This document shows positions 3-22,492 of a stretch of DNA of 32,000 bases, piece by piece (positions within the stretch are counted from its first letter, which is position 1; each line of letters opens with the position of its first letter). The notes under the pieces are model-generated. The model ran no database searches. It was not told the origin of the DNA and saw only the letters and a list, made by a program, of their open reading frames with translations. A program made the translations under genes and the position numbers. This stretch comes from Candidatus Hadarchaeales archaeon (GTDB lineage: Archaea; Hadarchaeota; Hadarchaeia; Hadarchaeales; Hadarchaeaceae): the NCBI GenBank assembly GCA_038823825.1, contig JAWBCC010000003.1:1-32000 (forward strand), written 5' to 3'.

Positions 3-3000
3 TCCGAGAACAGGTGGGAAAATGTTTCGAGTTTTCCCGCAACAGTAACAAACGCGAACGATAGACTTGCTTTCGACGGTACGTATTTGTATATGATTAG
101 AGGAGCGACCGATAGCAGTTTCTGGAGATATTCAGTCAAAACGATTCCGGCTTATTCCCTTAAATGGCAGCAAACAATTCCTCTGACGCTCTATGAGTCT
201 CCTGAACAGACATACGCCCAGCCGTACTCTCTTTCTCTTCTCGCAGGTGGGGTAACAAGTCTTGACAATATAAAATTCGCAGATGATAAACCCGCCAGCT
301 TCTCTCAAAGAAGATACATCTATGTTTATGAAAACAAAGGTAGAGGAACGGAAAATACAACGAGTACGAGTTTTGTTGATCTCGAGAATGCCAGAGTAAG
401 TGTTTCTGTCACCGATAATTCATACCTCATCATAAACTTCCACGCCGCTCACAATAGCTCAATGGCCGGCGACAAGGTTGAATTCAGGATAATGGTCGGA
501 ACCTACGTGGTTGCCTACGGTCACGGCGAGATGGGGGTTGCATCTCAGGATACAACGATATCGTTGACTAGGGCCTGGCGCGTGCCCCCCGGAAACTACA
601 CTGTCAGGGCACAATGGAGACGGGCTTCCGGGAGTGGAACACTCTGGTGTTGGGAGAGAAACATAACCGTCTGGGTAGTTCCGGAGAATGCTTTCCGAGT
701 ATTCTCAAACAGAGAGTGGTCAACAGTTTATGCCTCGGACTCGTTCTCTGATCTCTCCGGAATGGTCGCTCAGATTTCTGTATCTGAGGATTCTTACCTC
801 TTTATGAATTTCCATGCATCCTTCGACCATGCAGGAGCAGGAGGGAAAGTTGAGTTCAAACTGATGGTGGACGAAGAAAATGTCGCTTACGCATACGGAA
901 TGACCGCAACGGCTGGTCAAGATCTAATGGTCTCCTTAACCAGAGCTTACCAAGTCTCTCGGGGGACACACACAGTAAAAGTACAATGGAGGAGGGCAAG
1001 CGGTACCGGTACTGTGGCTTGTTGGGAGAGGAGTCTGAATGTTGTTGTCATTCCGGTTCGTGCATTGAGTGTATGGAGTAACAGAAATACCGAGACAAGT
1101 TCGACCTCCGGTTCAACCTGGGTTTCTCTTCCCGGAGCTTCTCTTTCATTCTCGACTCCAAGGGAATCAACTTTAGCCGTACAGTTCCACGCAAGCTTTA
1201 ACGTAAACGCTTCCGGGAACAAGCCAGAGTTCAGAATAATACTTGATGGTGACGAGAGCAACCCGTTGGCGATCGGATATGGATATATGGCTACGACCAG
1301 TCAGGATACCACTATCAGGCTTGTCGCAATGTCACGCGTGAGCGCAGGTGCTCACACGATTGCGGTTCAGTGGAGAGTTGCTTCGGGAACTGGAACCGCC
1401 TATTGTTGGGAGAAAAGCATAAACGCTGTGGCTCTTGAGAATCTCTTCGATTTTGAATTGCTTGGAGAAATCTCCAACATCCCGTTAGCCGACCGTTACA
1501 CGCTAGAAATGAAGTACAGGCTCTCAAGCGATTCCGACGGTTTTGTCGTATATGTGAAAAGCCCGCAGCCTCTTGTGACAGATAACACGGTTGCTCTTTG
1601 GCGCTTCGATGAGGGGAGTGGAGTTCAAGTCTTAGAGAGTAGCGGAAATGGACAGACGGGTTTGATATACGGTGTGAATGTTGGTGTACTCTGGTCAAGT
1701 GATTCCGTATTCGGGTACAGCTTAAACTTTACCGGCTTGGGAGGTTATGTCTTGGTTCCACACTCTTCCATCCTTGCTCCACCAGCGGGTTTCTCTCAAC
1801 TAACGGTTTCAGCTTGGATAAAAGTGCGCGAAGTGAGCGGTCATCATACAATCGTCACTAAACGCAGTTATGTCTGGGAGCCGACGAATGGATGGCAAAT
1901 GTATGTCGAGCCAGCTACGGATCCTGGTAAAGCAAAATTCTGCGTGATACTGAAATCAACTGGAGAAGGCTATTATGGTGTGGCGATTGACAATGCTGTG
2001 AATTTAAATGAATGGACTCATGTAGCATTTACTTACGATAATAACGGAGTCATCCGAGTTTATATCAATGGAGTTGACAGGACGTCAGAAGATTCATGGA
2101 ATTCGAGAGGAGGCGCTGGCAATGTTTTGAGCGCTCCAGACAATCTCTTCATCGGTTGTATAAACGGAACTTCCGAGTGGTTCATTGGATGGATAGATGA
2201 GGTGCGTATAGAGAACCGCGTTCTCACATCAGAAGAAATGGCTATCGAAGCTAGTCTAGAGCGGTTGTGGAGAAAAGTTGGAGAGCTCAGGGGCACTGAC
2301 TGGCAAAGCTTTACAAGGGTAGTCCCAGCAAATTCAGTTGAGAACGGAAGGATTTTGTTCAGGATAGTGGATATAGATCCGTTTTCCAAATCGCAGTCTG
2401 TTGACTTAGATATTGACTACATAAGAGTCTCCGGGTACCGCCTCTGGGAAAATCTAAAATTGAGAATTTATGGTTGTTCAATGAATGACGCCGAAAAAGT
2501 TTTCGTATACGTGTGGAATGGCAGAGAATGGGAAATCATTGGAACACTTCCGCAAGGCTCTCCCGGTTGGCTAACAGCCAATATTCCTTACCTGTATGCG
2601 GTCGGAACATCAGACCTCAAGATTCTCTACAAGTCCGAGGATGACAACGATGAAACGATGACAAAGGTTTGCTTAGACTATGTGGGCATAGGTGAAGGAA
2701 GTTCTTATTCGACTTCTGTCGAAGCATACATTCTGCTCAGTCTGGACGGCGAAAATTGGCAGGAATACGGCCCGTTCACAACTTTCCCTGTCGATCTTTC
2801 CTCTCTTCCACCGGCGAGATTTGTCAGATATCGGCTCAAACTTTTCTCGGATAGAGAAAATATGACGCCCATCGTGAGGAATGTGGAAATAAAAGTTGCT
2901 GCCTATACTGCCGACGAGAACATAGCGTGGGGAGGAATATTCTTCAATTCCTTCAGTGAAGATTATCTCTCACCCAACGGGATCGTCCTGCGGAAATCTG

Positions 3001-6000
3001 ATGGATCAAGAGCGAATGCGGTTCTTGCGACTGAGAACATAACAATCAGGATTAGAGCCTTCAGAGGGGATCTTACAGCTGTGAAGCTCCACGTGATAAC
3101 AGACTCGGGTGAAAACGTTTGGGAAATGAGTAGAACTCCTTCTGGTGCTTATGATTTCTGGACTAAAACCTTCCAGATGCGAGCAAACGAGAACTGGTCA
3201 TACTTCTTTGAGATCCGGGATGGGGACACCGTTGGATATTATGCCGATGACTCACTGAAGGATGGTGGTTCGGGGAGGAAATACGATTCTGAACAGGAAG
3301 CGAGATCGAATGCTTTCAGAATTCACGCACAGGCGCTTCCAACAGATCCGCAGGGAATGGTTATATACGAAGTGATGGTTGACAGGTTTTACGACGGCGA
3401 TCCTTCGAATAATAATCCATCCCAAAGCCCAGGACTTTACGATCCAAGGAGAGAAAATGGTAACTGGAAGTACTACTGGGGAGGAGATCTAAAAGGACTT
3501 ATCCAGAAACTTGACTATATCGCCGGAATGGGAGTTTCGGCAATCTGGATAACTCCGATTGTGAACAATATAGATAGAGCGAGCGAATATGACAACAGCA
3601 CCGGTTATCATGGCTACTGGGCAAAGGACTTCAAACAAATAGAGGAGCACTTTGGGACTTGGCAGGACGTTTATGATCTCGTCTCTGAGGCGAGAAAGAG
3701 GAACATCAGAATCATAATGGATTGGGCGCCAAATCACACGAGTCCGGCTTACTGGGGAGAGAATGGAGCTCTTTACGATAATGGAGTCTTCTGGACGGAT
3801 TATAGGAGAGAGTGGTTCACAGACGCTTTCTGGGCAAGGGAAAATTCAACTGTCAGCACAACCAGCACAACTTTTGTAGATCTTTCCGGCATGGCTTTGG
3901 ATGTTTTTATACATGAGAACTCGTATCTTCTTATAAACTTCCACGCCGCCCATAACATCAACACATGGGGAAAGGCAGAATTTCTCTTGCTCGTTGGAGA
4001 TACGGAGGTGGCAAAGGGTTACAGTCATATGGGACTGGGTGATGGGCAAGACACAACAGTTTCTCTCACACGAGCCTATTTCGTAACGCCCGGCAAATAC
4101 ACAGTTAAAGCGCAGTGGAGACTGGCGGAAGGCACAGGTACCGTCTACTGTTGGGAGAGAAGTCTTTCGGTTATGGTCGTGCCAGCATATTGGATAGTAA
4201 GAGACAATAGGGCGACGGACTGGGTCACAACAACCTCTACCTCCTTTGTTGATATACCCAACATGGCGTCGACAGTAACCGTCACAGAAAATTCATATCT
4301 GCTCGTAAATTTCCACATCTCACACAATGTTGATCACTCGAGTGGCGACGGAAAGGCGGAATTTCAGATCCAAGTTGGGACTGAAAACATTGCGATGGGT
4401 TACAGCAATTCGCCCTGGAAGCAGGACTTAACTCTATCTTTGACGGCTATTCGATTTGTAACGCCAGGAACGTACACGGTTAAAGCTAGGTGGAGATCAG
4501 TAAACGGGTATACCCTTGGTGCTTGGGAGAGAAGCCTCAACGTCGTTGCTATTCCCACTAGAGCTCTTAAAGTCGAGAATATAAGAAGCACAACTCTGAC
4601 ATCTACCACTAGCTCAACTTGGACGTCGCTCCCCAATGCATCCCTTTCCATATCTGTGCCTGAGAATGTAGTCTTAGCAATCAACTTCCACGCCGGATTT
4701 AACAACAATACTTCAGGAGCCAAGCCGCAGTTCATGCTCCGGGTCGATGGAAATCCTGTCGGTGTGGGATACAGCCGGATGGCTATGGCTAGCCAGGACA
4801 CCACTTTCAGGTTAGTCGCAGCAATCCCTGTTTCCGCCGGAAGTCATACGATCGACGTTCAGTGGCGTATTGAAAATGGTATAGGAATCGCATATTGTTG
4901 GGAAAGAAGTTTGAACGTTGTTGCCGTCACGAGAAACTTTAACGAGTTCACATGGAGCTGGGAGAATATCTTCAGACACAATGGAGATATAGACATGCAA
5001 GCCCAGGACGACAGGTGGAACATCCGTTACAGAAATCTGTTACAACTCGCGGATCTTAACCAGCTTAACCCGAGAGTGGACAACTATTTGAAAGAAGCCC
5101 TTAAGCTCTTCCTCGACGCCGGAATCGGGGGTCTAAGGATTGATGCGGCAAAGCATATGGATCCTGGATGGCTAAAGACTCTAGCGGACTTTGTCTATTC
5201 GGGCTGGGAGAACATATATATTATGCATGAATCGGTCGTCGAATTCTGGGATGAAACATATTGGGATGTTTGTCAATTCGATAACAACTACGGCATGCAC
5301 ATGATAAACACAGCATTGGCGTTCATAATCCGAGACGTTTTCGGCTGGAAATCTAGAAACATGTATGAGCTAGAATACTATGTCAACAAGCAATTCTCTT
5401 TCCCAGCCTCGGATATCCTTTGGAATCAAAAGGTCGTCAACGCTGTCGCCTGCCACGACTGGAGTAGATTCCGCTCGATGAACAAAAGCATGAGGGATTC
5501 AGAACTTGCGATAGGTTTTGTTCTCACTCTTCCTGGAATTCCGCTGGTATACTACGGCGAGGAGCAGTATATGTACAACGACAACATCAATCCGAATAAC
5601 GAGATAGGGGGAGACCCATATAACCGCGGAATGATGGTGGCATTCGACAACACTACCACGTACTATCGGCTGGTTAGAAAGCTCGCTGATCTTCGCAAAC
5701 TTAATCCGGCCTTAAGGTATGGAATAATTTCGACGAAATATGTGAGCGAAAATGTTTATGTTTTCCAACGAAAGTTCTTCAACGACGTAGTACTGGTTGC
5801 AATTAACCTTGGAGGAACAGACGTAAACCTCACGAACATCAGCGTAGAAATGCCAGACGACACGTATTCCGATTACTTAGGAGGTATTCTGGGCAACGGA
5901 AGAACGATAACCGTGCAGGGGGGCGTCATCTCATCTCTCACTTTGCCAGCAAGCTCGATGGGCGTCTGGTATTGCTTAACCGAAAACAACGAACCATGGC

Positions 6001-7178
6001 TTGGAGCGATAGATCCCGTTATGGGAAGGGCTGGAAACAAAGTAAGGGTGAGCGGTAAAGGTTTCGGCAAAACGCAGGGGCAGGTGATATTTGACAACGG
6101 AACTCAGAGATGGTATGCAACGATTATCGAATGGGCAGACGATCATGTTTACTTCCAAGTTCCGTCAGGCGTGGTTGTTCCCATTAACAAGCAGCATGTT
6201 GAAGTTTTCGTCAAGAGGGCCGACGGAAAGGAGAGCAATCGGATTCTATTCCAGTACTTAAAAGATAAGCTGGTCCTTGTTGTTCACAGGCTCGATAACA
6301 CGAAGGGCACAGAGCTGGAAACAACGATGGGCGAATTCCTCTTCATTACCGGTAGCGTGGCTGAGTACTCCAACTGGAGCGACAGGAGCGAGAATGCGGT
6401 TGGTCCGATGCTTTGTCCATATTGGGATAATTGGTTTGTTGTGACCGCAGTCCCGCGATCTACGTACATTGAGTTCAAGTTCATAAAGGCCAGACTCGGT
6501 GAAAGTGGAAGTTGGGAGAGCGGAAGCAACCACACATTTACGAGTCCTGAGAATGGCGTGCTATACAGACGCTCGCGGCCCGGTGGAGGGGCTAGTGGAT
6601 TCTCATTACCTCCAGGTAAGGAGTCCGGGGTGCAGAGCTTTACCCTGACCTCATCCGAGAATGTCAAGACTGAAAACGAAAACGTACCACCACTCTCACA
6701 GACCCAACCCTCAGAAAACGAAGTCACAGAAAACGAAGCTACATCATCCCCCGCGATATCGATAAGCAGCTCTGACTCTGGAGTTCTATCGTGGTTCATT
6801 CCAGAGAATGTGGAAGTTGCACGATACGAGGTAATGATTGACGATGATCCATCTTTCTCATCTCCAATAATCATTTCCGTTGTTGGTAACTCGCTTGACG
6901 TTCTAGCTCTTGGACTAGAAGGAGGACAGTACTTCTGGAGAGTTAGGGCGATTCTATCCGACGGCACAGAAATTTTGAGTGAAGTCGGAATGTTTGAGAT
7001 AAAAGCTTCTACCAAGACATCGCAGAAGCCGCTCTGGATACTACCGACCGGAATCGTGTTTGCGGCTCTGATTTCAGTGTTCATGCTCAAAGTTTTCATG
7101 AGAAAAAGAAATGGACGCTTTTTGCGTTACAGGCTCCATTCGATCCGCAAAAGTTTTGATGAAAAAATAAAAGCTTGA
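3..7178 (+). CDS. Giant membrane-anchored multidomain GH13 protein. It has a complete CGTase-like A-B-C-D(IPT)-E(CBM20) core, a LamG-like module and six copies of an unassigned ~124-aa module. Probably 5'-truncated by the window edge.
   Basis: One uninterrupted ORF. The frame is open from nt 3, with no stop before the TTG at 87, and the upstream residues ..DRLAFDGTY read as protein. GH13 regions: I IIMDWAPNHTS (3711-3743), II GGLRIDAAKH (~5127-5159), III YIMHES (~5217-5237), IV AVACHDWSRF (~5442-5471). Other matches: YWGGDLKGL..GVSAIWITP; IPT-like PWLGAIDPVMGRAGNKVRVSGKGFG; CBM20-like GSVAEYSNW..IEFKFIK..WESGSNHTFTSP. The C-terminus has a hydrophobic helix followed by a basic tail. Confidence 0.9.
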   Translation, partial: SENRWENVSSFPATVTNANDRLAFDGTYLYMIRGATDSSFWRYSVKTIPAYSLKWQQTIPLTLYESPEQTYAQPYSLSLLAGGVTSLDNIKFADDKPASFSQRRYIYVYENKGRGTENTTSTSFVDLENARVSVSVTDNSYLIINFHAAHNSSMAGDKVEFRIMVGTYVVAYGHGEMGVASQDTTISLTRAWRVPPGNYTVRAQWRRASGSGTLWCWERNITVWVVPENAFRVFSNREWSTVYASDSFSDLSGMVAQISVSEDSYLFMNFHASFDHAGAGGKVEFKLMVDEENVAYAYGMTATAGQDLMVSLTRAYQVSRGTHTVKVQWRRASGTGTVACWERSLNVVVIPVRALSVWSNRNTETSSTSGSTWVSLPGASLSFSTPRESTLAVQFHASFNVNASGNKPEFRIILDGDESNPLAIGYGYMATTSQDTTIRLVAMSRVSAGAHTIAVQWRVASGTGTAYCWEKSINAVALENLFDFELLGEISNIPLADRYTLEMKYRLSSDSDGFVVYVKSPQPLVTDNTVALWRFDEGSGVQVLESSGNGQTGLIYGVNVGVLWSSDSVFGYSLNFTGLGGYVLVPHSSILAPPAGFSQLTVSAWIKVREVSGHHTIVTKRSYVWEPTNGWQMYVEPATDPGKAKFCVILKSTGEGYYGVAIDNAVNLNEWTHVAFTYDNNGVIRVYINGVDRTSEDSWNSRGGAGNVLSAPDNLFIGCINGTSEWFIGWIDEVRIENRVLTSEEMAIEASLERLWRKVGELRGTDWQSFTRVVPANSVENGRILFRIVDIDPFSKSQSVDLDIDYIRVSGYRLWENLKLRIYGCSMNDAEKVFVYVWNGREWEIIGTLPQGSPGWLTANIPYLYAVGTSDLKILYKSEDDNDETMTKVCLDYVGIGEGSSYSTSVEAYILLSLDGENWQEYGPFTTFPVDLSSLPPARFVRYRLKLFSDRENMTPIVRNVEIKVAAYTADENIAWGGIFFNSFSEDYLSPNGIVLRKSDGSRANAVLATENITIRIRAFRGDLTAVKLHVITDSGENVWEMSRTPSGAYDFWTKTFQMRANENWSYFFEIRDGDTVGYYADDSLKDGGSGRKYDSEQEARSNAFRIHAQALPTDPQGMVIYEVMVDRFYDGDPSNNNPSQSPGLYDPRRENGNWKYYWGGDLKGLIQKLDYIAGMGVSAIWITPIVNNIDRASEYDNSTGYHGYWAKDFKQIEEHFGTWQDVYDLVSEARKRNIRIIMDWAPNHTSPAYWGENGALYDNGVFWTDYRREWFTDAFWARENSTVSTTSTTFVDLSGMALDVFIHENSYLLINFHAAHNINTWGKAEFLLLVGDTEVAKGYSHMGLGDGQDTTVSLTRAYFVTPGKYTVKAQWRLAEGTGTVYCWERSLSVMVVPAYWIVRDNRATDWVTTTSTSFVDIPNMASTVTVTENSYLLVNFHISHNVDHSSGDGKAEFQIQVGTENIAMGYSNSPWKQDLTLSLTAIRFVTPGTYTVKARWRSVNGYTLGAWERSLNVVAIPTRALKVENIRSTTLTSTTSSTWTSLPNASLSISVPENVVLAINFHAGFNNNTSGAKPQFMLRVDGNPVGVGYSRMAMASQDTTFRLVAAIPVSAGSHTIDVQWRIENGIGIAYCWERSLNVVAVTRNFNEFTWSWENIFRHNGDIDMQAQDDRWNIRYRNLLQLADLNQLNPRVDNYLKEALKLFLDAGIGGLRIDAAKHMDPGWLKTLADFVYSGWENIYIMHESVVEFWDETYWDVCQFDNNYGMHMINTALAFIIRDVFGWKSRNMYELEYYVNKQFSFPASDILWNQKVVNAVACHDWSRFRSMNKSMRDSELAIGFVLTLPGIPLVYYGEEQYMYNDNINPNNEIGGDPYNRGMMVAFDNTTTYYRLVRKLADLRKLNPALRYGIISTKYVSENVYVFQRKFFNDVVLVAINLGGTDVNLTNISVEMPDDTYSDYLGGILGNGRTITVQGGVISSLTLPASSMGVWYCLTENNEPWLGAIDPVMGRAGNKVRVSGKGFGKTQGQVIFDNGTQRWYATIIEWADDHVYFQVPSGVVVPINKQHVEVFVKRADGKESNRILFQYLKDKLVLVVHRLDNTKGTELETTMGEFLFITGSVAEYSNWSDRSENAVGPMLCPYWDNWFVVTAVPRSTYIEFKFIKARLGESGSWESGSNHTFTSPENGVLYRRSRPGGGASGFSLPPGKESGVQSFTLTSSENVKTENENVPPLSQTQPSENEVTENEATSSPAISISSSDSGVLSWFIPENVEVARYEVMIDDDPSFSSPIIISVVGNSLDVLALGLEGGQYFWRVRAILSDGTEILSEVGMFEIKASTKTSQKPLWILPTGIVFAALISVFMLKVFMRKRNGRFLRYRLHSIRKSFDEKIKA
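357..1436 (+). repeat. Protein-level repeat block 1: three tandem copies (~124 aa each) of an unassigned beta-rich module
   Basis: Copies are anchored at aa 96, 220 and 345 ([FW]VDL/SLP). Each contains SYLxINFHA, K.EF, QD.T..L(T/V), G.(Y/H)T(V/I)..QWR and G(T/S)GT..CWE(R/K)S. Confidence 0.8.
1581..2240 (+). other. LamG / concanavalin-like lectin module (Laminin_G_3-like) within the giant protein
   Basis: DNTVALWRFDEGSG..GYSLNFTG..GYVLVP..FSQLTVSAWIK..EWTHVAFTYD..IRVYINGV..LFIGC..WIDEVRIENRVLTSEEM matches the pattern typical of LamG_3 domains. Confidence 0.6.
3351..5975 (+). other. GH13 catalytic domain (A/B/C) of CGTase type, interrupted by repeat block 2
   Basis: Collinear by eye with Bacillus circulans 251 CGTase from VIYEVMVDRFYDGD through region IV and domain C. 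About 370 extra residues lie between the equivalents of CGTase residues ~169 and ~174. Confidence 0.8.
3858..4928 (+). repeat. Protein-level repeat block 2: three further copies of the same ~124-aa module, collinear with block 1 (1~4, 2~5, 3~6)
   Basis: Anchors are at aa 1263, 1387 and 1512, with the same period as block 1. Copy-specific signatures are shared pairwise with block 1. Confidence 0.8.
5994..6566 (+). other. IPT/TIG-like domain followed by CBM20-type starch-binding domain (CGTase domains D and E)
   Basis: By-eye alignment to CGTase domains D/E. The tail motif IEFKF.K....W(E)(S/G)GSNHTFT(S/A)P is conserved. Confidence 0.75.
7029..7100 (+). other. C-terminal transmembrane anchor of the giant protein
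   Basis: PLWILPTGIVFAALISVFMLKVF is followed by MRKRNGRFLRYRLHSIRK. There is no PGF-CTERM-type PGF motif. Confidence 0.6.
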
Positions 7179-20497: not shown

Positions 20498-20509
20498 AAT
20501 GTGCACATT
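20498..20509. promoter_or_regulatory. Perfect 12-bp palindrome AATGTGCACATT
   Basis: Read directly. It shares TGTG/CACA half-sites with the palindrome at 20534-20547. Confidence 0.5.
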
Positions 20510-20533
20510 TTTGGCAACGTTTTCGTGACAGAT

Positions 20534-20547
20534 TGTGTATATACACA
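20534..20547. promoter_or_regulatory. Perfect 14-bp palindrome TGTGTATATACACA containing a TATA core, about 30-35 nt upstream of ATG 20576
   Basis: Read directly. Candidate combined TATA box and operator for the beta-propeller gene. Confidence 0.5.
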
Positions 20548-20575
20548 GCAGTCAACAAACCTTAAACCGGTAAAA

Positions 20576-22492
20576 ATGGTCGAGGACTACCGAAAGTGGG
20601 AGAAACGGGTAAGAAATCTAAGCCCTGGAAGACACTTAAGATACACGCTTCTGGCCACAGTCGTCGTTGTTATGATAGTCGCCTTTATCGGCTCATACAG
20701 ATTTCTCCGATCCCCCGTCGTTAAAACAACATTCGGGTTGACCAAATTTTCTTCCGAGTCAGAGTTCCGCAGCTATCTCTTGAGCTCGAGCTGGCTGCTC
20801 AACTATCTCCCCAGAACGTTTACAGCCTCTTTTTCAGTCAGGGATGTCGGACTTGAAGGTGGACTAGCCGCGATACCAGAAAGAATATCGACGACGAACG
20901 TTCAGGTAGCCGGCATAGACGAGCCAGACATAGTGAAAACCGACGGCGTGAACATATATTTCTCACCACCCCCGTTGTTTTACGTCTGGTGGATTCCTGG
21001 TTTCCGCGCAGAGTTCCCAGAATTTCAATACCCGCAGACCCATATCGTCAGAGCTTTCCCCCCTGAAAACATCTCCGTCATATCGAAGATAGACAAAACA
21101 GGAGACATGCTCTTGGTTGACAATGTTCTTGTGATTTTCTCCGGAAGCGAAATCACAGGTTATGACGTGTCCAATCCCGACTCCCCGGTCGAGACCTGGA
21201 GCATTGAGGTTAATGGCTCGATTATCGCGGCAAGGCTTTACCGGGGAGTGATATATCTCGTTACGCAGACTTTTGTTTACCCAGATATCGATTTTCCATT
21301 GACTCTGATCAGATCAGAGAACGAGGCCGTCACCATAGGTGTCTCGGAAATCTATAGACCAGTGGAACGGATTCCAGTAGATGCTCTCTTCACCGCGGCG
21401 ACCTTGGACCCGATGCAGGGCAAGATAACAAATAAGCTTTCCTTCGTCGGTTCTTCTGGGACCTCCATCGTTTATATGTCCCAGAACGCTCTTTACATAA
21501 CTTACACGTACTACCCATCTCCGCTCGAGACGTACCATCGCTTCATCAAGGAAAAGTGTGGTGACATTCTTTCGAGCGACGACATGCTGAGAATAGATAA
21601 GCTGATAGCCTTGGAAATCAGCGAAGAGGCAAAACTTTTCGAGTTGGAAACAATTCTCGAGCCATACCTTAGGGAGATTTCCGCACGAGCGGAGAACTAC
21701 TTCGCAGAAAGGGCGAGAGATCTACAACTCACTGGAATAATCAAAGTGGATCTTGAAAGCTTTGGAATAGTGGCGCAAGGAAGGGTGCCGGGATATCCCC
21801 TCAATCAGTTCTCTCTCGACGAGTTCAACGGATATCTGCGCTTGGCTACGACCATAGAACCATTCATCTGGATGTTTGGCAGCGTGCAGAGTGCGAACGA
21901 CGTCTACATTCTGGATGGGGAACTTAAAGTAGTTGGATCAGTAAAAGATCTCGGTCTGACGGAGAGAATATACTCAGTTAGATTCATCGGAGAGAAAGGA
22001 TATATCGTCACCTTCAGGGAAACGGATCCATTCTACGTCCTAAATCTATCGGATCCAGCAAATCCACGACTTACAGGTGAGCTTAAAATTCCTGGCTATT
22101 CCTCCTACCTTCACCCGATAACGGAAAATCTCATCTTGGGCATCGGAAGGGAAAACTTGAATGTTAAAATCTCCCTCTTCGATGTTTCAGAGTCCTCGCA
22201 ACCAGTCGAGCTTGACAAAACGATTCTTGACGAATACTGGTCGGACGTTCTTGAGACTCACCACGCTTTTCTGCTCGATCCAGACCACAAGGTTTTCTTC
22301 CTCCCCGCAGGACAGAACGGATATGTCTTCTCATACGAAAACGCCAAAATCAGCCAGGTGTTGAAGACAGAAATTTCGGAAATCAGCAGGGCGGTTTATT
22401 TGGATGACTTTCTCTACCTAATAGGTTCGCGCGGCATAGTTGTCTTTGATGAAAACACGTGGCAAAAGGTCAGTGAGGTAGTGTTTGAGTAA
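20576..22492 (+). CDS. Secreted/membrane-anchored beta-propeller domain protein (COG4880 / Beta_propel family)
   Basis: NVQVAGIDEPDIVKTDGVNIY and ERIYSVRFIGEKGYIVTFRETDPFYVLNLSDPANPRLTGELKIPGYSSYLHPI are family hallmarks. An N-terminal TM helix (YTLLATVVVVMIVAFIGSY) follows ATG 20576. GTG 20501 is possible but less likely. Confidence 0.8.
   Translation: MVEDYRKWEKRVRNLSPGRHLRYTLLATVVVVMIVAFIGSYRFLRSPVVKTTFGLTKFSSESEFRSYLLSSSWLLNYLPRTFTASFSVRDVGLEGGLAAIPERISTTNVQVAGIDEPDIVKTDGVNIYFSPPPLFYVWWIPGFRAEFPEFQYPQTHIVRAFPPENISVISKIDKTGDMLLVDNVLVIFSGSEITGYDVSNPDSPVETWSIEVNGSIIAARLYRGVIYLVTQTFVYPDIDFPLTLIRSENEAVTIGVSEIYRPVERIPVDALFTAATLDPMQGKITNKLSFVGSSGTSIVYMSQNALYITYTYYPSPLETYHRFIKEKCGDILSSDDMLRIDKLIALEISEEAKLFELETILEPYLREISARAENYFAERARDLQLTGIIKVDLESFGIVAQGRVPGYPLNQFSLDEFNGYLRLATTIEPFIWMFGSVQSANDVYILDGELKVVGSVKDLGLTERIYSVRFIGEKGYIVTFRETDPFYVLNLSDPANPRLTGELKIPGYSSYLHPITENLILGIGRENLNVKISLFDVSESSQPVELDKTILDEYWSDVLETHHAFLLDPDHKVFFLPAGQNGYVFSYENAKISQVLKTEISEISRAVYLDDFLYLIGSRGIVVFDENTWQKVSEVVFE

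Follow-up and report, generated by a model that had tools for sequence, protein, structure and literature searches.

Two triplets of a TNF-like lectin-related module, one nested in GH13 domain B, in a giant protein of Hadarchaeota

Two module triplets in a giant amylase-type protein

The DNA analysed here (the window) is a 32,000-nucleotide stretch of contig JAWBCC010000003.1 from a Candidatus Hadarchaeales archaeon (assembly GCA_038823825.1). Its first gene is a single open reading frame (ORF) on the + strand, open from nt 3 and uninterrupted over ~7.1 kb to a stop at nt 7178. The 5' end lies beyond the window edge, the true start is upstream, and the encoded protein is longer than 2,390 amino acids (aa); residues are numbered from the TTG at nt 87, which is merely the first start-like codon. 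The protein contains a catalytic core of glycoside hydrolase family 13 (GH13) of the cyclodextrin glycosyltransferase (CGTase) type (CAZy GH13_2-like) and six homologous modules of ~124 aa, which form two triplets (nt 348–1469 and 3849–4970). Its overall order is Kelch repeats (upstream of the window), the first triplet (putative pseudo-trimer 1), LamG, N-domain, CGTase-like GH13 core, C domain, and CBM20, and the second triplet (putative pseudo-trimer 2) is nested within the GH13 core.

Modules 1 (nt 348–719, aa 88–211), 2 (nt 720–1094, aa 212–336), and 3 (nt 1095–1469, aa 337–461) would be the first, second, and third protomers of pseudo-trimer 1, and modules 4 (nt 3849–4223, aa 1255–1379), 5 (nt 4224–4595, aa 1380–1503), and 6 (nt 4596–4970, aa 1504–1628) those of the nested pseudo-trimer 2, all on the + strand. 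Module 6 is followed within its bounds by the return arm (TRNFNEFTWSWEN) that leads back to domain B. These assignments draw on the six-copy alignment, identities, and a tree, together with an AlphaFold2 (AF2) model and Foldseek for module 1 (a TNF/C1q-like jelly roll) and the junctions for modules 4 and 6. The six modules align over their full length with 16 invariant columns and pairwise protein identities of 30–55%; even the most dissimilar pair (3 vs 5) has a BLASTP E value of 3e-16, and the DNA identity among the copies is just 44–57%.

Aligned in register, the two triplets share 52% identity over 365 aa (E = 3e-112), compared with 44% after a shift by one module. In a neighbour-joining tree to which the modules of three related proteins had been added, bootstrap values were 0.89 for {1,4}, 1.0 for {3,6}, and 0.42 for {2,5}. 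The clade {3,6,h6,b3} also reached 1.0, and modules 3 and 6 are 55% identical, whereas copy 2 shows 46% identity to copy 5 and 48–50% to copies 1 or 4. Because two of the three pairs are well supported and the in-register alignment is better than the shifted one, duplication of the whole triplet as a block is the best reading of these sequences. A preliminary description of this locus had proposed six homologous copies in two collinear triplets that arose by such a block duplication, and the alignment bears this out; its module starts differ from the refined bounds by only 4–9 nt, and its end coordinate, 4928, corresponds to the last strand of module 6. The pairing it suggested stands for modules 1 with 4 and 3 with 6; that of 2 with 5 has little support in the tree.

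The second triplet interrupts the catalytic domain, at the place in domain B given in the preliminary description. The Pfam Alpha-amylase match is split into two separated stretches, the first of which covers aa 1096–1223. Likewise, in HMMER comparisons with CGTases and Novamyl in the Protein Data Bank (PDB), the GH13 core falls into two parts, which lie 381–386 aa apart here and adjoin in the solved enzymes (Novamyl 159/160; 6wni 188/193; 1cdg resumes at residue 167). In a MAFFT alignment, the insertion site holds 386 residues here vs 4–16 in 14 GH13 relatives, all of which are without the triplet: 12–16 in the closest relatives and 4–5 in the more distant CGTase-like ones. The stretch nt 3348–3803 encodes the N-terminal part of domain A (β1–β3) and the beginning of domain B as far as the equivalent of Tyr167 in the motif TDY (Pfam, HMMER against 6wni and 1qho, MAFFT, motif coordinates). 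The lead-in arm of the insertion (RREWFTDAFWARENS) follows in the domain-B loop (nt 3804–3848, MAFFT), and the rest of domain B and domain A, with catalytic residues, occupies nt 4971–5573 (HMMER, MAFFT, motif coordinates), all on the + strand. For numbering we used what we take to be the sequence of the Bacillus circulans 251 CGTase (BC251), placed with the aid of the 1cdg alignment coordinates. In this numbering, the insertion falls at about residue 167, between Tyr167 and Gly179. The loop is already ~12 residues longer in the closest relatives, namely the metagenomic proteins P0072–P0079 (~60% identity) and the Thermofilum pendens enzyme (51%), and triplet 2 is placed inside this loop, already lengthened in archaeal-type relatives. 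Among the 120 best of 747 GH13 relatives (E ≤ 1e-20), a GH13 core together with the module was found only in this Hadarchaeota lineage, and the same was true among the 150 best members of the module family.

The GH13 core is otherwise intact, as had also been proposed. Conserved region I (DWAPNHTS, nt 3720–3743), GGLRIDAAKH with the nucleophile Asp (nt 5127–5159), IMHES with the acid/base Glu (nt 5214–5240), and ACHDWSRF with the third catalytic Asp (nt 5442–5471) all align with CGTase and Novamyl, and conserved regions I–IV with the catalytic Asp, Glu, and Asp are all present. The donor subsite -6 of CGTases is made up of Y167, G179, G180, and N193 (PMC2714454). The corresponding positions and that of the central residue are found in the motifs HNG(D) and RNLL within nt 4971–5573: the equivalents of Y167, G179, and N193 are kept, Gly180 is replaced by Asp1634 (nt 4986–4988), and the central aromatic residue of CGTases (Tyr or Phe; Tyr195 in BC251) is replaced by Leu1652 (nt 5040–5042). 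In the closest relatives, position 195 is Trp, Phe, or Gly. The protein has, in short, neither the central aromatic residue nor a fully conserved subsite -6. Subsite -6 controls transglycosylation and cyclisation. With Leu at position 195 and Asp at position 180, cyclodextrin formation therefore cannot be assumed, and the enzyme may be a hydrolase or a disproportionating enzyme rather than a cyclodextrin former.

The arrangement recurs in other assemblies. The junction from GH13 to module 4 was found again in P0071 and P0331 (98% identity) and in L001, and that from module 6 to GH13 in L002. L001 and L002 belong to a second Hadarchaeota metagenome-assembled genome (MAG), CAZZKZ01, with 68–77% aa identity to the window, which therefore contains both junctions and all three nested modules; the nested modules themselves are 55–78% identical between the two. 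Synonymous sites are saturated between the window and L001/L002 while the proteins are still 55–85% identical, and the non-synonymous divergence from CAZZKZ01 is 0.10 for the core and 0.17–0.42 for the modules. Because of this saturation, dN/dS is not computable for window vs L001/L002 and purifying selection can be stated only qualitatively; the saturated synonymous sites and the two non-synonymous values indicate that the modules are maintained by selection and evolve faster than the core.

A mosaic N-terminal triplet was observed in a sister MAG (L003: JAWBPX010000044.1, GCA_038846365.1, nt 967–2639). It consists, in order, of module 1, the tail of module 4, module 5, most of module 6, and the tail of module 3, with DNA identities of 98%, 92%, and 97–100% to window nt 1–660, 4089–4924, and 1434–1673, respectively. 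At its first junction lie only 13 identical bases (TGTTGGGAGAGAA) common to both window copies. This N-terminal triplet looks like one largely overwritten by nested-triplet sequence through gene conversion, a chimeric assembly being the alternative. The apparent overwriting of the N-terminal triplet from the nested one suggests that the two knobs are interchangeable.

Fold, family, and packing of the modules

Library searches gave no direct assignment. Pfam at E ≤ 10 assigned no family to any of the six modules or to either triplet region, and nothing useful came from searching both triplets against NCBIfam and modules 1, 4, and 6 against PHROGs; the sole library matches of the modules, Fn3-like, STIV_turret_2nd, and phrog_25122, were sub-threshold and attributable to chance. 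The AF2 model of module 1 is an eight-stranded sandwich with a predicted local distance difference test (pLDDT) score of 93.5. In a Foldseek search of the PDB with this model, the top matches were the TNF-like lectins PLTL and BC2L-C-N (E 3e-5 to 5e-4, template modelling (TM) scores 0.65–0.72), followed by C1q-family heads, cerebellin, the chlamydial Pgp3, TNF ligands, and phage tail-fibre tips. Among predicted viral structures (BFVD), the matches were phage tail, collagen-like, and C1q-domain proteins, with TM scores up to 0.82. The predicted fold is accordingly a TNF/C1q-type jelly roll.

Profile methods also support homology to Bc2l-C_N and the TNF-like lectins. The family profile, run with hmmsearch against PDB sequences, matched PLTL over its full length at E 5.3e-4 and BC2L-C-N at 0.05–0.08, and when the six modules were compared by hhalign with PLTL and the P0242 modules together, the probability was 96.8% (E 2.2e-10, 87 columns). 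P0242, a family member with three modules, links both families: it matches PF21592 (Bc2l-C_N) in three stretches, scoring 43.2 bits where the cut-off is 27, and is also found by the module profile, at 2.6e-32. The profile and modelling results together indicate that the module is a remote, sub-threshold homologue of the TNF-like lectins BC2L-C-N (PF21592) and PLTL. The preliminary description had recognised in it no named CBM or domain family; the module, in spite of having no direct Pfam or NCBIfam match, is nonetheless related to Bc2l-C_N and PLTL and belongs to a very large family.

The size of this family was determined by an exhaustive profile search of 1.84 billion representatives, with counting at the 50%-identity level. 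The search found 12,074 cluster representatives, 3,014 of them at E ≤ 1e-10. A word-indexed profile search proved incomplete, finding only small single-module proteins and missing P0087 and P0071, which carry near-identical modules and are the top matches in the exhaustive search; its negatives are not evidence of absence. Exactly three modules occur in 63 of the 150 best family members, and in 77 of the 121 multi-copy proteins the number of modules is a multiple of three. Three is by far the commonest copy number in these multi-copy proteins, and copy numbers of 2, 4, 5, 7, 8, and 11 also occur. Sequence autocorrelation, used in place of a module-identity lag analysis that was confounded by a local HMM missing modules in many-copy proteins, revealed a superperiod of 422–423 aa, corresponding to three modules, in P0194 and P0196: the identity at a three-module shift is 57% and 28%, respectively, vs 11–13% at a one-module shift. 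In P0192 and P0200, the modules are visibly clustered by threes. P0194 (2666 aa) and P0196 (2451 aa) are giants made nearly wholly of triplets. Another giant, P0191 (3672 aa), has no GH13 domain and is apparently anchored by a C-terminal hydrophobic segment; it contains one triplet of the 'NSYLLIDFHAA...CWERSLN' subtype amid many repeats.

In other family members, a triplet is attached end-on, in the manner of accessory binding modules, to peptidases, ChW repeats, PKD and LamG domains, or secretion tails. The small homologues found in the first profile search (70/70) have a single module at the C-terminal end, preceded by an N-terminal extension of 10–100 aa, usually ~45–90 aa, and some small family members have matches to the C-terminal part of a 'minor tail protein' PHROG. 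A stalk-plus-head build of this kind would be expected if the chains trimerise among themselves.

A threefold assembly of three protomers is predicted within one chain for the triplets. The AF2 model of triplet 2 (384 aa) has a pLDDT of 86.6 and a predicted TM score (pTM) of 0.81, the latter indicating a confident mutual arrangement of the three modules, and the linkers between modules, ~15 residues long, are predicted to form strands. The six best PDB matches of the triplet are all single-chain trimers (4dou, 5kca, 5hkj, 5hzf, and two chains of 4zch), with TMq 0.56–0.60 over 404–449 alignment columns, whereas single lectin protomers cover one third of the model (TMq 0.27–0.29). All close structural relatives of the module found with Foldseek are obligate trimers, and the TNF-like lectins form trimers that bind sugar at the protomer interfaces and have both termini at one end (PMC12914763). 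Because the triplet is modelled as one compact body and its best matches are engineered single-chain trimers, each triplet is read as a natural single-chain pseudo-trimer. The preliminary description had offered no reason for the number of copies; a triplet predicted to be one folding unit would explain it.

Proposed role of the knobs

On balance, we consider it fairly probable that the pseudo-trimer knobs, one of them nested by subsite -6, capture a ligand, most likely a glycan; this proposal draws on the models and on analogy with the lectins. In this scheme, the modules are divergent TNF/C1q-like jelly rolls, and each run of three would fold around a pseudo-threefold axis. An ancestral triplet would have been duplicated as a block within the giant protein, and one copy would have become nested in the pre-lengthened domain-B loop at about position 167 (BC251), between subsite -6 residues. 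If the three modules close into a C3 arrangement, the N-terminus of the first and the C-terminus of the last should be as near to each other as the ends of consecutive modules, which are bridged by ~15 residues, so that the knob could be spliced into a surface loop with the barrel undisturbed. By analogy with the TNF-like lectins, ligand grooves would lie between the modules, whose Gln-Asp pair, invariant in all six, aligns with the PLTL loop that bears the sugar-binding Ser89 and Arg91. The nested knob would, as in the case of CBM58 of SusG, hold a glycan beside the substrate groove at its far donor end. Glycan capture adjoining the donor subsite -6 is the most likely role on this analogy. 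A more far-reaching proposal is that natural single-chain TNF-like lectin trimers are a large class, hitherto without annotation, of ligand-binding knobs in prokaryotes and their viruses, in effect a new carbohydrate-binding module (CBM) family, and that the Hadarchaeota GH13 knob feeds or gates the donor end, giving a specificity unseen in CGTase-type enzymes; we put this forward tentatively, as a possibility that is rather doubtful at present.

Several observations weigh against the ligand-binding pseudo-trimer. None of the six modules matches PF21592, even at E ≤ 10. The residues of PLTL that bind fucose (Thr80, Ser89, Arg91, and Arg117; PMC12914763) are not conserved in the modules: Arg91 corresponds to the invariant Asp68, Arg117 to Ser, Glu, or Asn, and Ser89 to Ser, Gly, or Lys, and Thr80 falls within an insertion specific to PLTL. 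Because the fucose-binding arginines are replaced, the ligand of the knobs, if any, is probably not fucose. The trimeric packing rests on prediction, and AlphaFold may reproduce memorised trimers. The existence of proteins with four, five, or seven copies implies that modules in tandem do not have to form trimers within the chain in every case; tandem copies can serve otherwise, for example as successive inter-chain knobs along a fibre. Finally, no sugar-uptake genes were found in the gene neighbourhood, which is housekeeping.

Other explanations of the triplets differ in how well they account for these data. That metagenome misassembly made the insertion or the repeats, or that the gene is a decaying pseudogene, might be suspected from the shortness of the related contigs, which break within repeats, from the mosaic N-terminal triplet of the L003 contig, and from the ~600–820 aa of LamG repeats that the window protein lacks relative to a sister MAG. 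We rejected this possibility, to which we give almost no weight: the 7.1-kb reading frame is unbroken, both insertion junctions recur in independent assemblies and in a lineage of 68–77% identity, the copies are too diverged in DNA (44–57% identical) for collapse, and the proteins are conserved, remaining 55–85% identical while synonymous sites are saturated. The six modules might instead be beads on a string, that is, independent β-sandwich spacer or CBM-type domains whose occurrence in threes is an accident of duplication. The packing in favour of a trimer is predicted, and the copy numbers in the family other than multiples of three would suit such a string. Nevertheless, we judge it very improbable in view of the whole-triplet pTM of 0.81, the TM scores of ~0.6 to single-chain trimers vs ~0.28 to protomers, the predominance of three among multi-copy numbers, the recurrence of a three-module superperiod in unrelated proteins, and the obligate trimers among the close structural relatives. 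The nested position also speaks against both three domains in a linear row and trimers formed between chains; a string of ~370 aa would leave its ends far apart and fits poorly into a short loop.

Two further explanations accept the knob and give it another task. A nested knob that binds nothing could act as a steric gate, capping the far donor end (subsites -6/-7) and altering product specificity, with loss of cyclisation as one possibility, much as a small domain-B loop insertion makes Novamyl a maltogenic amylase. The insertion does fall between subsite -6 residues (PMC2714454), and the replacements of Tyr/Phe195 by Leu and of Gly180 by Asp suggest a departure from classical cyclising chemistry. 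However, a triplet of the same type lies at the N-terminal side, far from the active site, the end-on triplets with peptidases, ChW repeats, and secretion tails fit a self-contained binding module better, and the seeming overwriting of the N-terminal triplet in the sister strain makes the knobs seem interchangeable. We regard gating as a serious alternative that is compatible with, and does not exclude, ligand binding, yet as rather unlikely. Still less likely, in our estimation, is a role in adhesion, in which the knobs would bind a protein or cell-envelope target, such as the S-layer, another cell, or a partner enzyme, and would serve in positioning the enzyme, not in substrate binding. C1q, TNF ligands, and phage tail tips are among the structural neighbours, and C1q/TNF heads and many phage receptor-binding tips work in this way; the match of small family members to the 'minor tail protein' C-terminus and the lack of conservation of the lectin sugar-binding residues point in the same direction. 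In contrast, the nearest relatives in both sequence and structure are lectins, the host protein otherwise carries carbohydrate-active or carbohydrate-binding parts (LamG, GH13, and CBM20), and an anchoring role hardly explains nesting beside the substrate groove.

Comparison with known systems places the glycan-capturing knob among several partial counterparts. The TNF-like lectins BC2L-C-N (Burkholderia cenocepacia) and PLTL (Photorhabdus laumondii; 9IB6–9IB9) have in common with the modules the jelly roll (TM 0.65–0.78), an N-terminal motif (T/S)S..(F/Y)VD(L/I) and a C-terminal motif T(V/I)K.QW, and a threefold assembly, which is a predicted one here. These lectins are homotrimers of separate chains (PLTL a hexamer), whereas the giant protein has three diverged copies per chain that fall below the Pfam threshold, have the fucose-binding Arg and Thr replaced, and are part of, and nested in, an enzyme. 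The engineered single-chain trimers of adiponectin (4DOU), C1q (5HKJ and 5HZF), APRIL-BAFF-BAFF (4ZCH), and Cbln1 (5KCA) are likewise threefold jelly rolls in one chain; they are man-made eukaryotic fusions with artificial linkers, in contrast to the natural triplet with native linkers of ~15 residues. A natural chain of three tandem gC1q domains is the mollusc C1qDC protein HcC1qDC6, a eukaryotic immune lectin of another sequence family that is not nested in an enzyme and for which the record gives no structure (PMC5519582). Phage tail-fibre and minor-tail C-terminal knobs and the small stalk-plus-head proteins have the same module, presumably as a trimeric receptor-binding head, with one module per chain and the trimer formed between chains.

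As for the enzyme, the core is 36–60% identical to those of CGTase-type enzymes (6WNI, Novamyl 1QHO, BC251 1CDG, Thermofilum pendens P0080, and the metagenomic P0072–P0079) and has the same four conserved regions, catalytic triad, C domain, CBM20, and Y167, G179, and N193 of subsite -6. None of the enzymes compared has a triplet in domain B, and the giant protein differs from them by Leu for Tyr/Phe195 and Asp for Gly180 and has over three times their length, including Kelch, LamG, and other modules as well as a presumed C-terminal anchor. The architecture is new, as the preliminary description had suggested, in that among the relatives examined it was seen only in the Hadarchaeota lineage; the nesting itself has a precedent in CBM58 of SusG from Bacteroides thetaiotaomicron. 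The inserted fold, the size (~370 aa here; CBM58 has ~120 aa), the GH13 subfamily, the exact site, and the organism, here an archaeon, all differ from those of SusG, and starch binding is proven for CBM58 and putative for the knob. The inserted modules are not CBM58, to which Pfam gave no match; their fold and homology point to the TNF-like lectins. Common to the two proteins is the type of site, the β3-to-α3 excursion, which in GH13 is domain B: SusG and GH10 xylanases are surface hydrolases with a binding module nested in this excursion (PMC7848910; PMC4173775), CBM58 being inserted in domain B of SusG and GH10 enzymes having one to three CBMs in the β3/α3 loop (PMC7848910).

Already known are thus the jelly-roll fold, lectins that form such trimers, single-chain trimers made by engineering, and the principle of a binding module nested in GH13 domain B (CBM58 of SusG). 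What is new is that a very large family hitherto without annotation is assigned the TNF-like lectin fold, that a knob of this type is nested in a CGTase-type GH13 catalytic domain, an arrangement found here only in Hadarchaeota, and that one protein carries the knob twice through block duplication; likewise new is the reading of the family's tandem triplets as probable natural single-chain trimers. A family of 12,074 representatives without a Pfam or NCBIfam model of its own hereby gains a fold, lectin relatives, and a suggested mode of ligand binding in inter-module grooves. Fusion of three TNF/C1q protomers in one chain appears to have arisen repeatedly, and nature may predate the engineering trick. 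A single chain lets the three binding grooves diverge and makes the trimer portable as one insertable cassette. For GH13, the knob is a second accessory module nested in domain B, structurally unrelated to the first, and here it sits by subsite -6 of an archaeal CGTase-type core. That position makes the enzyme a candidate for novel product specificity or for activity at high temperature on raw substrate. The protein also hints that uncultivated Hadarchaeota of the subsurface and hot springs invest in very large surface-bound proteins for polysaccharide processing.

Remaining parts of the protein and neighbouring genes

The other domains of the giant protein were assigned mainly with Pfam. Laminin_G_3 covers aa 552–717 and Alpha-amylase_N, a weak match, aa 980–1056. 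The C-terminal side has a CGTase-type layout through domains C to E (nt 5742–6557, + strand), with Alpha-amylase_C at aa 1886–1962 (nt 5742–5972) and CBM_20 at aa 2078–2157 (nt 6318–6557). CGTase domain D gave no Pfam match in the giant protein; the CGTase alignment, however, extends through residue 506, and homologues have PF01833 (TIG) and PF00686 (CBM20). Pfam, the CGTase alignment, and the domains of homologues together give the order A/B-C-D-E with a terminal CBM20. The final 50 residues, as read from the sequence, contain a 23-residue hydrophobic helix (LWILPTGIVFAALISVFMLKVFM, nt 7032–7100, + strand) and then a basic tail; this helix is presumed to be a membrane anchor holding the enzyme on the cell surface.

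The part of the protein upstream of the window can be judged from the near-identical partial proteins P0071, P0331, and P0087, which come from MAGs labelled Hadarchaeales or Bathyarchaeia and from which the Kelch-type repeats are deduced. Next to window nt 1–347, the sister protein P0087 has ~390 more residues upstream, with Kelch-type β-propeller repeats (PF13964 and PF24681, weak matches). A difference from P0087 and P0331 was observed at about nt 1659–1700 (aa 525–540), between 'GLIYG' and 'VNVGVLWSSDS', where ~600–820 aa of LamG-type repeats are absent from the window protein; they would come after pseudo-trimer 1 and ahead of the LamG domain (aa 552–717). Either a deletion between repeats at strain level or collapse during assembly could account for the difference.

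The neighbouring genes are archaeal housekeeping genes: glmS, hypE/hypF, carA/carB, Nre, and an aminopeptidase. With hypE/hypF, carA/carB, glmS, the aminopeptidase, Nre, and similar genes as neighbours, a role in a starch-utilisation gene cluster was rejected. Amid carA/carB, Nre, and hypE/hypF lies a gene (nt 20501–22492) for a 663-aa protein with a full-length Beta_propel match (PF09826), which has no obvious connection to the amylase.

Within the giant protein, ~350 aa between the assigned domains have no Pfam match (aa ~718–980, nt 2238–3023, and aa ~462–551, nt 1470–1739) and are conserved in P0071 and L001; such regions may hold additional undescribed modules. Between CBM20 and the anchor (nt 6560–7031, aa ~2160–2315), a Ser/Thr/Glu-rich linker is accompanied by a domain of ~80 aa with a weak match to DUF4962 (E 0.002).

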